Below, in pieces: positions 2,380 through 62,660 of a DNA stretch of 64,000 nucleotides. A program made the translations under genes and the position numbers. Source of the DNA: Octopus sinensis. Lineage: Eukaryota. The notes under the pieces are model-generated. The model was not told the origin of the DNA and ran no database searches. It saw only the letters and a program-made list of their open reading frames with translations. Each line of letters opens with the position of its first letter. Position 1 is the first letter of the stretch. The stretch is taken from NCBI RefSeq assembly GCF_006345805.1, contig NC_042997.1, forward strand, positions 204,414,001 to 204,478,000, read 5' to 3'.

Positions 2380-2875
2380 ATTTATAAATGAGGGTGAAAA
2401 ATTGATATTAATTTAATAATACCATTAATTTAACACCGAGTGGCTTAGCACAAAAAAAACTATGGAGAAAATACAAATTTATACATAAATTATTAGAGAG
2501 TTAACCACTATGTGGATAGCTCTTGTGCTAAAAATAGCTCCGATAGTATAGCCACAGAAAAAGATGTTTCCAATTAGAAATAACATACATCTAACGGAAG
2601 GAAAGTGAAATATAACGAATAAATAGATTGACCCTGAACAAATTGTTTCATTACTAATGTAATATGTAATTTTACTTACATACACATCTATAAATCATCA
2701 GCAGAGGTTTGTCTTAAATACAATTAATTAGACCGACACGAGCGTCAAAAACACATGCGGTTTAACGAATTGCATTTTTAGTTATGCCTCAATTGGAAAC
2801 ATCTTTTTCTGTGGCTATACTATCGGGGCTATTTTTAGCACTAGAGTTATCCACATAGTGGTTAACTCTCTAATA

Positions 2876-2880
<5 letters not shown>
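2380..2880. mobile_element. (TA)n-embedded element with 89-bp inverted arms enclosing a hammerhead
   Basis: Arms 2487-2575 and 2791-2879 are near-perfect reverse complements; TA arrays on both sides. Confidence 0.8.
2632..2707 (-). ncRNA. Type I hammerhead ribozyme motif, intact core, extended stem II
   Basis: Minus strand: CTCTG-CTGATGA-[tttatagatgtg TATGTAA gtaaaa TTACATA ttacattagtaat]-GAAAC-AATTT-GTT-CAGGG. Stem I CTCTG/CAGGG (one G.U), near-palindromic stem III, GUU triplet. Confidence 0.7.
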
Positions 2881-2921
<41 letters not shown>

Positions 2922-10753: not shown

Positions 10754-11639
10754 GGGCTATATATATATATATAATCATCATTTAACATCCATTTATATAT
10801 ACTTATATCATCCACTTCTTCATCATTTAATGCTCATATCTATCTATCCATCTATGTATCTATGTATCTATCTTTCTATCCATCTATCTATCTATCTATC
10901 TATCCTTTTATTTGTCATTGGATTTCAACCATCCTGAGGTGTTGCCCTGAAAGGTTTAATCGAACAAATCACTCCCAATACTAATTCTTTTAAAATGTTG
11001 CCTGGTACTTATTCTATTGGTCTCTTTTACAAAAGTACTAAGTTATGGGGATATGAATGAACCAACACTAGTTGCCAGGTGACATGGGAACAAACATATA
11101 ACCATGCACATACACACAACCACACATTTACAATGGGCTTCTTTCAGTTTGTTTCAACCAAATCCACTCACAAGACATTGGTCAGACTGAGACTATATTA
11201 GAAGACACTTGCCCAATGTGCCATAGAGTGGAACTGAACAAAAACCATGTAGTTGGAAAGCAAATATCTTATCATACAACCATATATATATATATATATA
11301 TATGGAGATATGATAAACCTATTATAATGGGTAACACTACATGTACTTTTCATAATGGGTAATACTACATGTACTTTTCATATTTTTTATATTGTGATGT
11401 AATTCTTTGGACTAACAATGTTTGCGGCTGAAGAGAGCTTTAAACCATCTTTTATATCAATAATACATGATGTAATAACGGATTGTTTATAAAGCTTGAA
11501 ACATGTGTACCGCGATAAATTTTGTGTTTTTTTTTTAATTTTATTTGATATATTCCCTCTCACCTCAGCCACTATCTGGCATATAAAGGTGCCCACACTT
11601 ATCAAGTATTCACCCTAAATTTACAGTACCTACTTGATA

Positions 11640-37591: not shown

Positions 37592-39247
37592 TATATATAT
37601 ATAGAATCATTAAAAATTAATGGTAACTAAGGATGTCTCAGCCTTGAACTAAACTCTGTACTTAGCAAAATAAATTACAAACATTGTTTAAATCTCGTTT
37701 CATTTTTGAAGAAAGGAAATAACTTCCATGCAAAATTGAAAATATTGCATTTTCCTGTTAAAGATTAACTGATATAAACATAATTACTTTTAGTACAGAA
37801 GAGTAACATACAATGCCTTGCAAACAGTAATCATCCTATCAAAGTTGCCTGTTGCTCAAGATTGGCAAAATCTCACAAGTTTCATGTTTATTTATTTATT
37901 TATTTAATTATAGCTTATATTGTTAATTAAAGAACATTAGCACTGCTGATTACTGGTTTCTAACGGACCAATCTCAGAGAGGGTGACAAGTGAGTATCTC
38001 TAACTCAATACAGGAAAAATATATTAAGGGACTTTATTCGTAAGGCACCAGTTTTTTTTTTCAGTTTTGTTGTCTATGTTTGTATCTTTTGATGATATAC
38101 ATCAGTAAAAGCTATACATACAAGTGTCTTCTACTATGGCCCCAAACCAACTGATACCTTGGGAGTGGCATGTGTGAGACAGAAACTGTACAACGATTGT
38201 TGTAATGCATATTATATATCATCATCATCATCATCGTTTTAGTGTTTACTTTTCCATACTTGTATGGGGTGGACTGAGTTTAATGAGGCAGATTTTCTGT
38301 CTGGATGCTCTTCCTGTTGTCAACCCTCATCCATTTCCAAGAGCAAGGTAATATTTGCCTATTGCCAAACATATTTTCACAGACTTTTGGAAATGACACA
38401 CACACACACACGCATGCACACGTCAGGCTTTCTTCAGTTTCCATCAAGTAAATCCATTCACAAGTCATTAGTCTGTATGGGACTACGGTAGAAGAAACTT
38501 CCCCAAAATGCCATTCAGTATGTTGGGAAGCAAACTTCTTAACCACAAAGCCATACCAGCACCTGTATATATATATATATATATATACATGGATACACAC
38601 ATAGACACACATTTGTGTGTGCTGTGTGCAAATGCATGTTGTGATATTTCCCTTGTTACCAAAAGGTGCTGATGTTTCCATTTCTTGTTGACATTTTAAT
38701 CAGTCACTCTGCCCTTTCAAAGACATGTGTGGTAACAATCCCTTTCTTGAAAAATAGGTGAGGGTTGGCAACAGGAAGAGGATTATCTGGACATACAACC
38801 CTGCCTCAAACTCAATTACTACCCATGACATTCAAACATGGGAAAATGTATGTTAAACAAATGATTGACTCATCATCATCATGATTTAGCATCTGTTTTC
38901 CATGCTGGCATGGGTTAGATGGTTTTACTGGAACCGGTAAGCTGGAGAGCTGTGCCAGGCTCTGGTTTGTTTTGGTTTGGTTTCTATGGCAGGATGCCCT
39001 TCCTAATGCCAACCCCTCCACAGAATGCAGAGTGTGCCTTTTACACATCACCAGCACTGCTATGACTATGATTTCACTTGGCTTGACAAGTCTTCTCAAG
39101 CACAGTAAATCACCAAAGTTACTGAAGAAAATATGGAATGCTTCAGGAACAGGCATGTCTCCCTTGTGCAGGGCAATGTTAATCTTCTCTGTATTGTTCT
39201 AATTTTAGGATATGTATAGCTGAAGATATATATATATACATATATAT

Positions 39248-43878: not shown

Positions 43879-44012
43879 CAAAATAACTAATAGATAGGAA
43901 AAAGTCAGAGCTGCCACAAATACAATATCTATCTATCTATCTCTATTTATCTATCTATCTCTCCATCTACACATACATATACGCACACACATATACATAC
44001 ATACATATATAT

Positions 44013-44055
<43 letters not shown>

Positions 44056-44202
44056 ATATATATATGAGCAAAATAACTAATAGATAGGAAAAAGTCAGAG
44101 CTGCCACAAATACAATATCTATCTATCTATCTCTATTTATCTATCTATCTCTCCATCTACACATACATATACGCACACACATATACATACATACATATAT
44201 AT

Positions 44203-44240
<38 letters not shown>
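43875..44240. repeat. Direct tandem duplication, period about 190 bp, just downstream of the TRIM stop
   Basis: tgagcaaaataactaatagataggaaaaagtcagagctgccac... starts at 43875 and 44065; the non-TA portions appear identical. Confidence 0.9.
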
Positions 44241-44256
<16 letters not shown>

Positions 44257-44352
44257 GTATATATATATATATGATGCACACACATGTGTGGGTATGTGTA
44301 TGTATGGTATGAAGCTATTAATCAGAAAGAGAATCAATAACTACTAAAAGAT

Positions 44353-45963
44353 CTATGAGGAATTATCGCTTTCTGCACTAAAAAAGTTTTCTTCAACACT
44401 GCTGCTGTGCTTAAGAACCGGACTGCTCCCTACCGATGAAATTACACAAGCTGATGTGTAGGTTGTCGGTTCGTCTCCCACCTCCATAGCTCTTGGTCGT
44501 TCTCTTCGGCGTCGATGGTGTCGGCGATTGATGACAGGAGAAGATTGTGGCTCGGGGGGTGTTTGTGGCTCACCATTATTTTCCGGAGATCCTTCCTTGG
44601 AGTTGCGTTGAAGCTGATAGGTTAAACTCTGCAGACTACGGGATCGAGTATTAACAGCCTTCTCTTCAGTCTCCACTTTGTCAGTACTGATGGACTTATC
44701 ATCGGCTCCAGGTGGGGCTGGAGTTTCCTCAACATCCGTCTGTATTGCCGCTTCCCTCAGCTTATGGCTCTTGTCTTCTTTTTCAGTTTGCGTCGAGGTA
44801 GAAGAGGATGGCGGCGCTCTAGTGGGGGACTTTTCTCTCCAGTAATCAGCCGCTGATAAAGACCGACGAGGTTGCATCGATACTTTTGGTTTCGGCCGAT
44901 CCGGATCTTCAATTGTTCCCAGCTCTATACTTCCCGGAGTAAATAAAATTTGCTTGCACACTGTATTAGGGAGTTCCTTAAGCTCAATTTCCGACAGACA
45001 TGAAAGTTTTTCTTGCACTTGATTTTTAAGCAGGAGCAGTTCAATGTCTTTCCCTTTCAGAACTAACTCTGTCAAGTTACATGTATTTCTCAGACTTTCC
45101 AAATTTGATTGCATTTCCACTTTTCTGTTAATATATTCCATCACCTCAGATCCATACAATGAATGCAATTCTTCAACCAAGTTTTTCTCTTTAGATCGAA
45201 TTTCAGCAATAAAAGCGATAGCTACATCATGAATTTTTTGTTCAGCATCTTTGATCAAAGTGTCACATCTGCCAAGCGTATCAATTTGAGTATCATATAC
45301 ATTAATACGATCCTTGCAAGATTCCAAGAGACGTTGTATACTATCTTTATATTTAACGACAGCATCCGAGAAATTTGTAATTTCATGGTCCTTATGTTCG
45401 TTAAATGTACAGAGGACACAAATACAAGCTTGGCATGGCTCACAGTAGAATCTAACCACTTCTTCCTTGTGTTCCTTGCATTCAATATCTTTTTCAATTT
45501 CCACATCGAAAAGACTGTGAGACTTGGTGACTTTCGTTTCTTTATGCAATTCCACGCATGGTTTGCAGAGAAGCTTATTACAGTCTAAACATTTTGATGA
45601 TGCTTCTCTGTGTTTACGATTTACCATCTTACAGATATCACAGAATGGAAACTTGGATGGTCTTTGTCGTGCCACCACCTCTCCTAAACTTGAGACCAGA
45701 AAGTTATCTGGAAGTTTTTTCACACCACCGATTGGAAGATTGGTTCGTTTCCGACATAATGGACATGTGAATTCACGATAGTCACTATATTTTTTATACG
45801 TGCATTCTGACATAACATGGTTCTCAATACACTGTTCACAAAATGTATGCAAGCAGTCTAAACATTTTGGGTTTTTAAAGCCCTCCAGACAGATCTTACA
45901 TGTAAGAAATTCATCATGAATTTCCTGGGCTAACTTATTTCCTGTGGTGGTTGTGGCAGCCAT
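44353..45963 (-). CDS. TRIM/RBCC E3 ubiquitin ligase (TRIM56/TRIM2/3/45-like N-terminus, no NHL or filamin domain seen); 536 aa from first ATG, in a single exon
   Basis: Open frame to TAG at 44353. C3HC4 RING (CKIC...CLHTFCEQC...CPLC), B-box1 (CDIC...CLDCNKLLCKPC..H...H), B-box2 (CKEH...YCEPCQACICVLC...H.DH), coiled-coil region, then Ser/Pro/Arg-rich tail. The frame is open back to the acceptor, so an upstream exon could extend the N-terminus. Confidence 0.95.
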   Translation of the reverse strand: MAATTTTGNKLAQEIHDEFLTCKICLEGFKNPKCLDCLHTFCEQCIENHVMSECTYKKYSDYREFTCPLCRKRTNLPIGGVKKLPDNFLVSSLGEVVARQRPSKFPFCDICKMVNRKHREASSKCLDCNKLLCKPCVELHKETKVTKSHSLFDVEIEKDIECKEHKEEVVRFYCEPCQACICVLCTFNEHKDHEITNFSDAVVKYKDSIQRLLESCKDRINVYDTQIDTLGRCDTLIKDAEQKIHDVAIAFIAEIRSKEKNLVEELHSLYGSEVMEYINRKVEMQSNLESLRNTCNLTELVLKGKDIELLLLKNQVQEKLSCLSEIELKELPNTVCKQILFTPGSIELGTIEDPDRPKPKVSMQPRRSLSAADYWREKSPTRAPPSSSTSTQTEKEDKSHKLREAAIQTDVEETPAPPGADDKSISTDKVETEEKAVNTRSRSLQSLTYQLQRNSKEGSPENNGEPQTPPEPQSSPVINRRHHRRRRERPRAMEVGDEPTTYTSACVISSVGSSPVLKHSSSVEENFFSAESDNSS

Positions 45964-46027
45964 GATATCATTGATGTCAATCGCAGTTGTGTGATATCTA
46001 CTTCCAACTTCAAGACGTCGGCGGTTC

Positions 46028-46055
46028 CTGGAAAGAGATAAAAAAAAATACAAAG
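46028..46055 (-). promoter_or_regulatory. 3' splice acceptor and polypyrimidine tract of the TRIM exon
   Basis: Minus strand reads a T-run then atctctttccAG|GAACCGC; the exon begins at 46027. The ORF-track start at 46053 lies in the intron. Confidence 0.85.
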
Positions 46056-49416: not shown

Positions 49417-50295
49417 TTGTCATTGTCATTTAATGTCCATTGTCCATGCTGGCATGGGGAGGACGGTTTGACCAGGACTCGCAAGCTTGAAGGCTGCACC
49501 AGACTCCAGTTTGACTTGGCATGGTTTCTATGGCTGGATGCCCTTCCTAACACCAACCACTCTGGGAGTGTAATGGGTGCTTTTACATACCACTGGCACA
49601 GGTGCCATTTGCGTGACACCAGTATCTGCCACAACTGTGATTTTACTTGGCTTGATGGGTCTTCTTCAGCATGACATAATGTCAAAGATCTTGGTCATTC
49701 ATCATTGCTTTCATAAAGCCCAACACTTGAAAGGAGCTTTTCACATGCCACTGGCACAGGTGCCAATTAAATGACACCAGTATCAGCCATGACTACAATT
49801 TCAATTGGCTTGACGAGTCTTCTAAAGCACAGCATATTATAAAAGGTCTCAGTCACTAGTCATTGCCCCCGGGAGGTCTAAAGTTCAAAGATCATGCTTC
49901 ACCACCTCATCCCATGTCTTCCTGGACTTGCCTCTACCACAGGTTCCTCATATAGTTAGAGATCAGCACTGCTTTATACAGCTGTCCTCGTCCATATGCA
50001 TCACATGGCCATACCAGTGCAGTCATCTCTCTTGCACACCACATCTGATGCCTCTTATGCCCAATTTTTCTCTCAAGACACTTACACTCTGTTGAACATG
50101 CACAATGACATTGCACATCCAGCGAAGCATACTGGCTTCATTTCTTTCAAGCCTACACATGTCCTTGGTTGTCACAGCTCACGTTTCACTGGGGTGTAGC
50201 ATAGCTGTTCCCACACAGGCCTCATACAATCTGAAGGAAAGGCCCTTTGTTACCAACAGAGGTAGGAACTCACTGAACTTTGCCCAACCTATTCT
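49417..50295 (-). mobile_element. RTE LINE 3' end (ORF C-terminus plus 3' UTR)
   Basis: Minus strand: GIRGIRCGVQER.LHWYGHVMHMDEDSCIKQC...GRGKSRKTWDEVVK, then a 3' UTR matching the (GAT)n-tailed short elements. Confidence 0.85.
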
Positions 50296-50325
50296 TATAT
50301 GTGTGTGTGTGTGTGTGTGTGTGTA

Positions 50326-50915
50326 TTTATTGAGTTAGAAAACAGAGAAATTTAATAGACACAAATTAATTTATTAATTAATCAACAAATTAACCAACAA
50401 TTGTTTCCGTTCTCAAATAAGATTAAAATTACAAATCATATAATAAAAATATAATTTTGCATTTTAAATACCTTGTAAGGAAAATCATTAGGGTTTTCAG
50501 AGGACAATAAGGATTACATTAGGATACTTTTGGAATATACAAAATATATAAACAATATACTGTATATTCCGAAAGTATCCTAATGTAATCTTTATTGTCC
50601 TCTGAAAACCCTGATGATTTTCCTTACTAGGTATTTAAAATGCAAATTATATATTTATTATATGATTTGTAATTTTAATCTTATTTGAGAAATGAAACAA
50701 TTGTTGGTTAATATGTTGATTAATTAATTAATTAATTTGTATCCATTGAATTTCTCTGTTTTCTAAATCAGTAAAAATGTTTGACATCTTATGATATTCT
50801 ATTTAATATATTCATTGAAAAATTATCTCTTCAAAATTTAATATATTAAACCAGTGTATCTTGGCTAAATATCCCTAAAAGAAGTTTGAATATTCTCATT
50901 GTGACTATTTGTTAT
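50326..50915. mobile_element. Large foldback element (about 215-bp arms) with a hammerhead in each arm
   Basis: 50326-50541 is the reverse complement of 50561-50775 with scattered mismatches and a 19-nt loop. The right side continues about 140 bp into (TA)n; the left side abuts (TG)n. Confidence 0.85.
50607..50709 (+). ncRNA. Type I hammerhead ribozyme motif, intact core, about 75-nt stem II hairpin
   Basis: AACC-CTGATGA(50611-50617)-[long hairpin including GCAAATTATATA/TATATGATTTGT]-GAAAC(50694-50698)-AATT-GTT-GGTT. Palindromic ACAATTGT stem III. A mirror copy on the minus strand (50392-50495) has a mutated CTAATGA core. Confidence 0.7.
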
Positions 50916-50963
50916 ATACACATATATATATATATTATCATATCATATCATATATATATATAC

Positions 50964-51000
<37 letters not shown>

Positions 51001-53769: not shown

Positions 53770-53928
53770 CAGTTCTATATTTAAGAGATGAGGAATTACG
53801 TACATTATTTACATTTGACGGATATTTGTCCTCATCTTGTTTGTTGCTGGAGGGTATATCAGCCAAAATGTTGTGTTAGCAACAAGCAAGATGAGGACAA
53901 ATATCCATCAAATGTAAATTATGTGTAA
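53770..53928. mobile_element. Small foldback insertion with 12-bp target-site duplication
   Basis: Arms about 53801-53848 and 53878-53925; direct repeat tgtaaagaagta at 53758-53769 and 53924-53935. Confidence 0.7.
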
Positions 53929-60984: not shown

Positions 60985-62660
60985 GAACAATTTTGAAGTC
61001 TGTTTTAAGAAACTCCAAGAACAGGAATTAAAACAAAAAAATCTCAGTAGATTATTGAGATTTGTGTTACAAAGTAATACAATGAAATTTGGACAAAGAT
61101 TGTACCACCAGACGAGGGGTTGTGCCATGGGTACTTCCATGGCAATTAATTTCGCTAATGTCTTCATGACGAAATTTGAGACACAACTACTGAAGACATT
61201 CAAATCCCTTCATGGTCATGAACCAATACTTTGGTTACGGTTCATTGATGATGTCTTGTCTGGGATGAATCACAAGATAGTTTAATTGACTTCTTGCATT
61301 TCTGTGACAGTTATGCTAAAAATTAAGGCTTTAAGTCCAACATAATATTTACGTCTAGTTTTTCAAAAACTAGTGTTGAATTTTTAGAACACAAAAGTTA
61401 AGTTTTTTGGAGGCAGAATGGTAACAGAGTTATTTTGCAACCCACGTCATCCCACATTTATCTCCACCACCGCTCCAATTATCCACATCATCCTATTCGA
61501 TCAAATCCGAAATCCCAATTTTTGAGGATAAAACGGATTTGTACTGACATAGGGGATTACTGGAAACATGCAAATGCTTTTGTACATCATTATGTTAAAC
61601 ACAGTTACAGTGAATCATGATTAAAGGAAATAGCAAATAACATAGCTAAGATTAGCAAAGAAAGTTAAACCTTCATGCATAATTTTAGCAAACACAATAC
61701 AATTGATGACAGAATTCCTTTAGTGATTAACTGGCACCAAAATTTGGCTGGTATGTCAAAAGTGTTGCATGAAAGTTACCAGCATGTAGCGAAAAAATAT
61801 CCACATTTCAAATTTGACATTTCCTCGGCTGCCTATTGTAGCCTTTAGACGGAATAAGAATATAAGAGAATTATTGACCTCTATTTCTGACTCCAAGAAA
61901 ATGAACATTGGAGTATCTGCATGCTGTACCTTAAAAAACAGCCGCAAGAGAAGTAAGCCCTGTTCATTGCGCAACAATATGGGTCAAGTCAGGAATCATA
62001 ACAGAAATGTTATGATTTATACAGAAGGTGGAACATGTAGAGATTCAAATTTGGTGTACATGGCAGAATGCATGAAACACAACTTAATTTATGTTGGCTG
62101 CACAACAGAACAATTAAACAAAAGGTTTAATGGGCTCAGATTCGACGTCAGGCACAATAAGAGTAGTTCGACAGAATTTGCTGAACATTTTACTTCAAAC
62201 GGCTGCAATTATGAAGAAGACTTGAAAGTGCATATTCTCTGAAAATATTCTGAATCTGCTTCACTTTCACTTCTCAAAATGCATGAGGAGAAATATGTTT
62301 GTGGGTTATTAACATCACACTCTGGAGGAGTGAATGAAATGACAGGCGAATATCAAATTTATACAAAACAGTTTGATTAAATAGTCATTTTTCTTTTCTT
62401 TTCTCTTTTTTTCTGTCTTTTTCTTTTTGCCTGTTATAAAACTGAAACTTAAAAACTGATGATGTCATCCCATCAACATGTGGAAGCTGGTTTCTCTTGT
62501 TTATACTTTAAATTTCTATAATTTTGAATTTTTATCACTTCTTATTTTGAACTTGACAAAGACAGATTTACTGACAAAATATTGTTCAACCAATAAAATA
62601 TCTATTACAATCGAATTGCACTCTTTGTCTTGACTGTTTACCTTTGTGAAGAGTTACATC
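60985..62660 (+). mobile_element. Penelope-like retroelement (Neptune-type), 5'-truncated and frameshifted: RT plus GIY-YIG endonuclease
   Basis: RT motifs QTRGCAMGTSMAINFANVFM..FE and WLRFIDDV; thumb region YLHHRSNYP...KSQFLRIKRIC; PIVAFRRNKNIRELL; Cys cluster followed by GIY-YIG TCRDSNLVYMAEC...YVGCTTEQLNKRFNG; AATAAA at 62592. Confidence 0.9.
62547..62589 (+). ncRNA. Degenerate minimal hammerhead-like motif at the Penelope 3' end
   Basis: TTGAAC-TTGACAAA-GACAG attta CTGAC-AAAATATT-GTTCAA: 6-bp stem I and palindromic AATATT, just before AATAAA. A second relic (CTGATGA...GAAGCTGGTT) lies at 62456-62492. Confidence 0.5.

Follow-up and report, generated by a model that had tools for sequence, protein, structure and literature searches.

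A foldback in the Octopus sinensis genome is probably the decayed 3' end of a Penelope-like retrotransposon with two long-stemmed hammerheads

The Hydra clade of Penelope-like elements (PLEs), described by Craig et al. (2021), includes Hydra-1_Obim, an element of 2507 bp, and the same source names the way in which PLEs form inverted repeats as an open question (PMC8557442). For PAc, a Poseidon element of Anolis, it is known that the element's protein nicks and extends both strands, that two start sites of reverse transcription bound the tail, and that the hammerhead is protein-assisted (PMC11167929). In the description of the axolotl retrozyme HHR_Amex2, the hammerhead monomer reached 22% cleavage in 1 h, and the dimer cleaves more (PMC7229834).

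We analysed a stretch of 64,000 nt of O. sinensis DNA (the window), in which a foldback with arms of about 215 bp, carrying mirror-image hammerheads, had been predicted. We conclude, with a probability of about 0.85, that the locus is the decayed 3' end (pseudo-LTR, or pLTR, plus tail) of an old PLE, likely of the Hydra clade, lying in a microsatellite beside a second copy that is inverted and has no tail, and that both long-stemmed hammerheads are predicted to be inactive. The features are listed in Table 1.

Table 1. Features of the foldback locus, in window coordinates.
Feature	Position	Strand	Basis
(TA)/(TG)n microsatellite, left flank of insertion	50296-50325		Sequence; a microsatellite follows 16/17 short ends in the family
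Left arm: inverted, 5'-truncated copy of the element 3' end; ends at the family short end, tail-less	50326-50554	-	Arm alignment, family 3' ends
Second hammerhead, likely inactive: G5A in the core (CUAAUGA), two further changes where stem II begins	50396-50491	-	Family alignment
Right arm: direct pLTR copy, pairs with left arm	50555-50775	+	Arm alignment
Type I hammerhead motif: stem I 50607-50610/50706-50709 (4 bp); core 50611-50617 (CUGAUGA) and 50694-50697 (GAAA); 2-bp stem III; predicted cut after 50705 (GUU)	50607-50709	+	Descriptor, family alignment
Stem II hairpin, 76 nt, about 31 bp, U·U mismatch at base	50618-50693	+	Folding, z -4.48
Tail, about 135 nt, between family short and long 3' ends; right copy only	50776-50908	+	Family 3' ends; counterpart is 155 nt in full-length L221
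(TA)n microsatellite, right flank	50909-51000		Sequence; a microsatellite follows 29/35 long ends in the family

The foldback is real. Its arms pair in two blocks, 50326-50457 with 50644-50775 (92%) and 50456-50547 with 50555-50646 (93%), and differ at 17 of 222 alignment columns, i.e., a divergence of 7.7%. The predicted folding energy was -277.6 kcal/mol (z -48), and none of 100 shuffled sequences was as stable. There is no true spacer between the arms; the left copy extends 7 nt more 5' and terminates at the centre of a 12-nt palindrome of the family, as also happens in L016. The arms have in common three deviations from the family majority, one of which is absent from all of the other 48 copies. 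Inverted duplications are a familiar artefact of long reads, so a chimeric foldback read could in principle have entered the assembly. The probability of this is close to negligible, given the 17 differences between the arms, the end of the arm at a family-specific site and the presence of the same design at eight other loci.

The complete hammerhead core predicted in the right arm (50611-50705, with GUU) was found, and its stem III palindrome spans 10 nt (50696-50705) rather than only 8. The left-arm copy with CUAAUGA was also as described and lies on the minus strand, at 50491-50396. The nested stem II hairpin, which had been put at 75 nt, is present with 76 nt; folded alone it had an energy of -16.5 kcal/mol, and none of 200 shuffled sequences was as good. 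With a strict hammerhead descriptor there were three cores in the window (50611+, 2701- and 11428+), compared with 0.01 per shuffled window (100 shuffles); no hammerhead appeared among the 150 of 186 matches listed from an Rfam scan of the window. In a 121-nt hammerhead fragment the minimum-energy fold was not the catalytic form, and the core paired instead with the stem III region.

Both ribozymes are likely to be dead at this locus, to judge from these models. In read-through RNA both motifs would be buried in a duplex of about 220 bp, and because the foldback would block hammerhead folding, neither is expected to work there. Plus-strand RNA would yield the antisense arm first, so that the intact motif would be paired while emerging. 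On the minus strand, which is the sense strand of a neighbouring TRIM exon, the sense-oriented motif is the G5A copy and cleavage is therefore unlikely; G5A serves as an inactive control in the work described in PMC4075628. In the active ancestor, the hammerhead was probably a weak cleaver that acted as a dimer or with the assistance of a protein.

Conservation of the core and of stem II pairing was examined by aligning 50 of 54 collected copies, the exclusions being one duplicate and three rearranged copies. All 11 core positions were intact in 24 of the 50, and core columns were less variable (6.9%) than other columns (11.0%). In a 37-pair structure 89.3% of cells were paired, against 87.0% in shuffles, and there were 50 cells with a double change, against 24.6; the number of base pairs with a double change (10, against 7.4) was not above shuffles (59/500). 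The covariation came mainly from a single compensatory pair in stem I together with two in lower stem II; all three mark one subfamily, so that they represent few events, and there was no double change in the upper or middle stem II helix among the 50 aligned copies. At the base of stem II, the two opposed positions were U in 49 and 45 of the 50 copies, so that the conserved G10.1-C11.1 closing pair is replaced by U·U, and the cleavage-site base was mostly U (42/50). The core and the three helices, of which stem I and lower stem II covary, assign the motif on sequence grounds to the type I hammerheads.

The genome searched comprised 2.72 Gb in 13,516 contigs, and the arm belongs to a dispersed family, with 610 candidates; scoring 40 of these gave 47 matches with 82-93% identity, self excluded. 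The copies have variable 5' ends and two discrete 3' ends, about 135 nt apart: among 73 distinct 3' ends, 17 were short (50750-50780), 35 were long (50880-50912) and 21 lay elsewhere. A microsatellite adjoined 45 of the 52 short or long ends, a preference for (TA)n like that of the Hydra clade. Head-to-head pairs made up 9 of the 28 distinct loci in the scored search. Eight of the nine combined a short-end with a long-end copy, in the ninth a long end was paired with one at 50811, and no short-short or long-long combination occurred among them. The tail was thus confined to one end in 8/9 pairs, its length being about 135 nt and not 30-40. Two tail-to-tail arrangements were also observed. Overall, the family displays the 5' truncation, partial tandems and inverted 5'-truncated copies that are seen in PLEs with an endonuclease (EN+).

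These family data bear on the idea that the locus is a MITE or foldback DNA transposon in which the hammerhead-like motifs are incidental. The terminal-looking inverted arms in AT-rich sequence do have that appearance, but 19 of the 28 loci were not head-to-head, the 3' ends were fixed while the 5' ends varied, and stems I and II covary. Continuity with an open reading frame (ORF) for reverse transcriptase (RT) and EN, described below, would refute a DNA transposon altogether unless the linkage were an artefact of nesting, and we regard this origin as very improbable.

For the inverted arm of the retroelement, we infer a two-strand priming model from the behaviour of PAc (PMC11167929). At a (TA)n tract, the element's endonuclease would nick each strand; reverse transcription would start at two sites about 135 nt apart, giving one cDNA each; and both cDNAs would break off near the 12-nt palindrome and be joined head-to-head in a single event. 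The main rival is snap-back at that palindrome, in which one cDNA of the same element folds there and copies itself up to the short end, or, as a variant, later conversion from arm to arm. Snap-back is attractive in that the left copy stops at the palindrome centre here and in L016, and in that private variants are common to both arms. It is a possible course of events, although a doubtful one: other pairs were truncated unequally, their matched parts lying as much as about 640 nt apart; the inverted arms end at a short end that is also used by solo copies (17/73 ends); and PAc extends both nicked strands, with two start sites (PMC11167929). Priming on both strands is therefore the course that we prefer.

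The parent element was sought in other copies, from which the linkage to RT and EN was read, the window copy being 5'-truncated. Stepwise searches upstream revealed continuous overlapping homology (e.g., 2175 nt at 78% between L149 and L154) that reached a decayed ORF for RT with a C-terminal GIY-YIG domain, on the hammerhead strand and 2-3 kb upstream of the hammerhead. Remnants of the GIY-YIG ORF were present in L149, L151, L154 and L155, and of the RT in L154 and L186. The distance from EN to hammerhead was about 2.0-2.9 kb in L151, L154, L187, L192 and L196; it was greater in the two loci with later insertions, L155 and L186. When 12 loci were chosen by EN similarity, the hammerhead region lay downstream on the same strand in four (L186, which was known before, and L187, L192 and L196) and was inverted on the 5' side in L190; it was absent from 7/12 within the 10 kb fetched. 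An earlier view of the family as a 1-kb non-autonomous unit was overturned by the upstream homology, and the short non-coding head-to-tail monomers of a non-LTR retrozyme do not describe a family that continues into a coding element. Several other candidates were rejected. L005 and L010, 2.7 kb apart, had no ORF between them that they could flank as direct pLTRs; the GIY-YIG ORFs beside L008, L024 and L057 came with a separate hammerhead and (TA)n end, whilst that beside L084 was on the opposite strand, so that these are mere neighbours.

Features common to this family and to the Hydra clade, as the clade is described in PMC8557442, are the C-terminal GIY-YIG domain, the CxCX5C linker (present in L186 and L188) and an EN without CCHH but with CxxC and CxH near its conserved E and N residues (as judged by eye in L186, L187 and L189); (TA)n targets and a sense-strand 3' hammerhead are also common to both. 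A weak Pfam match to GIY-YIG (E 0.0011, below the cut-off) was obtained with one of six proteins. The RT of L186 was 50% identical to a 590-aa relative and 50-61% identical, over the segment used for a tree, to 20 relatives, several of them with DKT. In that tree, of 21 copies all from this genome, the family RT groups among sister families. The sister families have ORFs of up to 960 aa with DKT and RW motifs; DKT was present in 9/20 relative loci and RW[RKL] in seven, all in sister families, the N-terminus of the window family not having been recovered. No intact ORF of the window family was found. A protein fragment of L134 was, by eye, a near letter-for-letter match to the published Hydra-1_Obim. 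Together these comparisons place the family among EN+ PLEs, and make membership of the Hydra clade likely, published Hydra proteins having been compared by eye.

A young full-length Hydra-like relative (L221:2368-6851) has three hammerheads and an ORF of 906 aa; its layout is (TA)n, short-end pLTR in inverted orientation, direct pLTR followed by a 155-nt tail, ORF, pLTR with tail, (TA)n. The foldback in the window is this design minus its middle. The inverted pseudo-LTR arrangement suggested in the original prediction, which is already known for PLEs, is thus supported by the RT/GIY-YIG linkage, the family 3' ends and the layout of L221. A further subclade (L222:1249-6750, L231, L232 and L236) has ORFs of up to 960 aa, 3' UTRs of >2 kb and a stem II of about 85-103 nt. 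Elsewhere in the window, at 61000-62400 (+), there is a decayed PLE of another clade, with RT and GIY-YIG and with no match to the family RT. The window also holds a diverged U6 copy at 39127-39231 (-; 76 bits), probably a retro-pseudogene, and, at 53802-53924, a hairpin with 47-nt arms, 94% complementary, within a high-copy repeat.

The TRIM exon (RING/B-box) lies at 44432-46027 on the minus strand, with a near-perfect tandem duplication of about 190 nt (43900-44260, junction 44016-44075) directly downstream. Contigs from runs presumed to be RNA ended at the TRIM acceptor (46027-46029), 4.3 kb from the foldback, and scattered low-depth contigs covered 46-64 kb. This pattern fits a long TRIM intron over the foldback; the breaks exactly at the acceptor may mean that there are several upstream exons. 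A scan for ORFs and CpG in 40 kb beyond the window found no upstream exon. With such an intron and so stable a hairpin, the foldback could have been kept by the host as regulatory dsRNA, i.e., as an ADAR substrate, a source of small RNA or a splicing element. This we consider unlikely. The arms are as diverged as decaying family copies, and foldbacks occur in 9/28 family loci, so that selection is not needed to explain this one. No difference was seen in the 50186-50839 bin among the rows listed, which come from contigs that drop rare variants. In the foldback bin, four presumed-RNA contig sets had depths of 5.8-26.8; this signal probably stems from other copies and for that reason is uninformative on editing.

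The original prediction had also noted a second element, near 2632, with the same architecture and an unrelated stem II. BLAST of the arm against this element gave no similarity, and the architecture was found both within the family and in unrelated families. Other families in the genome had 45-103 nt between the core halves; eight such segments folded as single hairpins (z -1.3 to -4.0), of which six closed <=1 base from the core. In pattern counts over the genome, which record the pattern only and are inflated by a few high-copy families, cores with a spacer of 60-90 nt numbered 1584 against 435 in the control (excess 1149), those with a spacer of 8-38 nt numbered 586 against 440 (excess 146), and the U·U/GUU pattern with a spacer of 35-65 nt numbered 461 against 26. 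The excess was thus about eightfold greater for long spacers, so the number of these ribozymes would be underestimated by searches confined to a short stem II. A descriptor search found no hammerhead downstream of 12/18 relative ORFs, some being recovered by another scan or by eye (L222). Nor is a long stem universal in octopus Hydra elements, the listed Hydra-1_oBim hammerhead having a 7-bp stem (PMC8557442).

Three further families were observed. The 2632 family (window 2471-2895) is young (94-99%, 874 candidates). Its hammerhead has U·U/GUU and a stem II of 45 nt, its two 3' ends are separated by about 95 nt, and its head-to-tail units have a period of about 497 nt, with no ORF seen; it looks like a retrozyme or a mini-PLE. 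The third long-stem hammerhead in the window, at 11420-11520 (+), has a 63-nt stem II, a 6-bp stem I and GUA and is followed by (TA)n; its family has 1042 candidates, head-to-head pairs among them. An abundant family represented by L096, L101 and L106 (match at about 1500) has the core pattern with no pairing beside GAAA, and possibly is not a hammerhead; ORFs of a different type of retroelement lie near L101, L120 and L121.

Tentatively, a giant stem II of 45-103 nt may have been retained repeatedly in octopus Hydra-clade elements as a functional component of the hammerhead, e.g., as a docking site for the element's protein or as a substitute for the contact between loops I and II, and the strict short-plus-long pairing would be the trace of twin priming, in which a dimeric RT used the two start sites. 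If so, a large class of ribozymes has been missed by short-loop descriptors; both ideas are directly testable in young full-length copies. The locus alone is an ordinary dead transposon end, and the wider pattern is of modest importance. The long tail and the short-plus-long rule nevertheless provide a clear genomic readout of how PLE inverted repeats form. About one third of sampled insertions were foldbacks, so the elements could supply long dsRNA steadily; this could matter in a heavily editing animal, although the link to editing is hypothetical.

Among known systems, there is already precedent in print for hammerheads in mirror-image arrangement, for U·U at the base of stem II and for a U at the cut site. 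Many listed Hydra hammerheads have the last two, as here (PMC8557442 File S2). However, the clade description in PMC8557442 gives a stem II of 3-7 bp with a loop of 3-10 nt, against 76 nt here and 45-103 nt in the other families; a stem III of 3-4 bp, against 2 bp; a tail of 30-40 bp, against about 135-155 nt; and whole elements generally <3 kb, a tendency and not a diagnostic motif, against a 3' UTR that alone is 2-3 kb. The minimal PLE hammerheads described by Cervera and De la Peña (2014) resemble ours in being of type I, with a stem I of 4-5 bp, a short palindromic stem III and dual opposite-strand motifs 100-700 bp apart, mostly in truncated PLEs; their helix II is 7-8 bp with a conserved G10.1-C11.1, whereas that here is about 31 bp with U·U (PMC4209133). 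HHR_Amex2 is alike in its U·U stem II base and 2-bp stem III with a tetraloop, but is a non-coding tandem repeat, whereas the octopus copies are 3' ends of a PLE that encodes protein (PMC7229834). In PAc, too, the two start sites bound a tail carried by some copies, although it belongs to a different clade, with a tail of 30-40 bp and a hammerhead that overlaps the ORF start (PMC11167929). The hammerheads of PLE-X1_sMoe and PLE-X1_sTam also have an enlarged stem-loop II, with loops of about 30-35 nt, but these spike-moss elements are EN-less, rDNA-targeted and shorter, and are marked as deviating (PMC8557442 File S2). No account of long-stem hammerheads in octopus PLEs was found in the literature, Repbase being outside its scope. 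Provisionally, therefore, what is new here is the giant stem II across families, together with the length of the UTR and of the tail and the rule that short ends pair with long ones.
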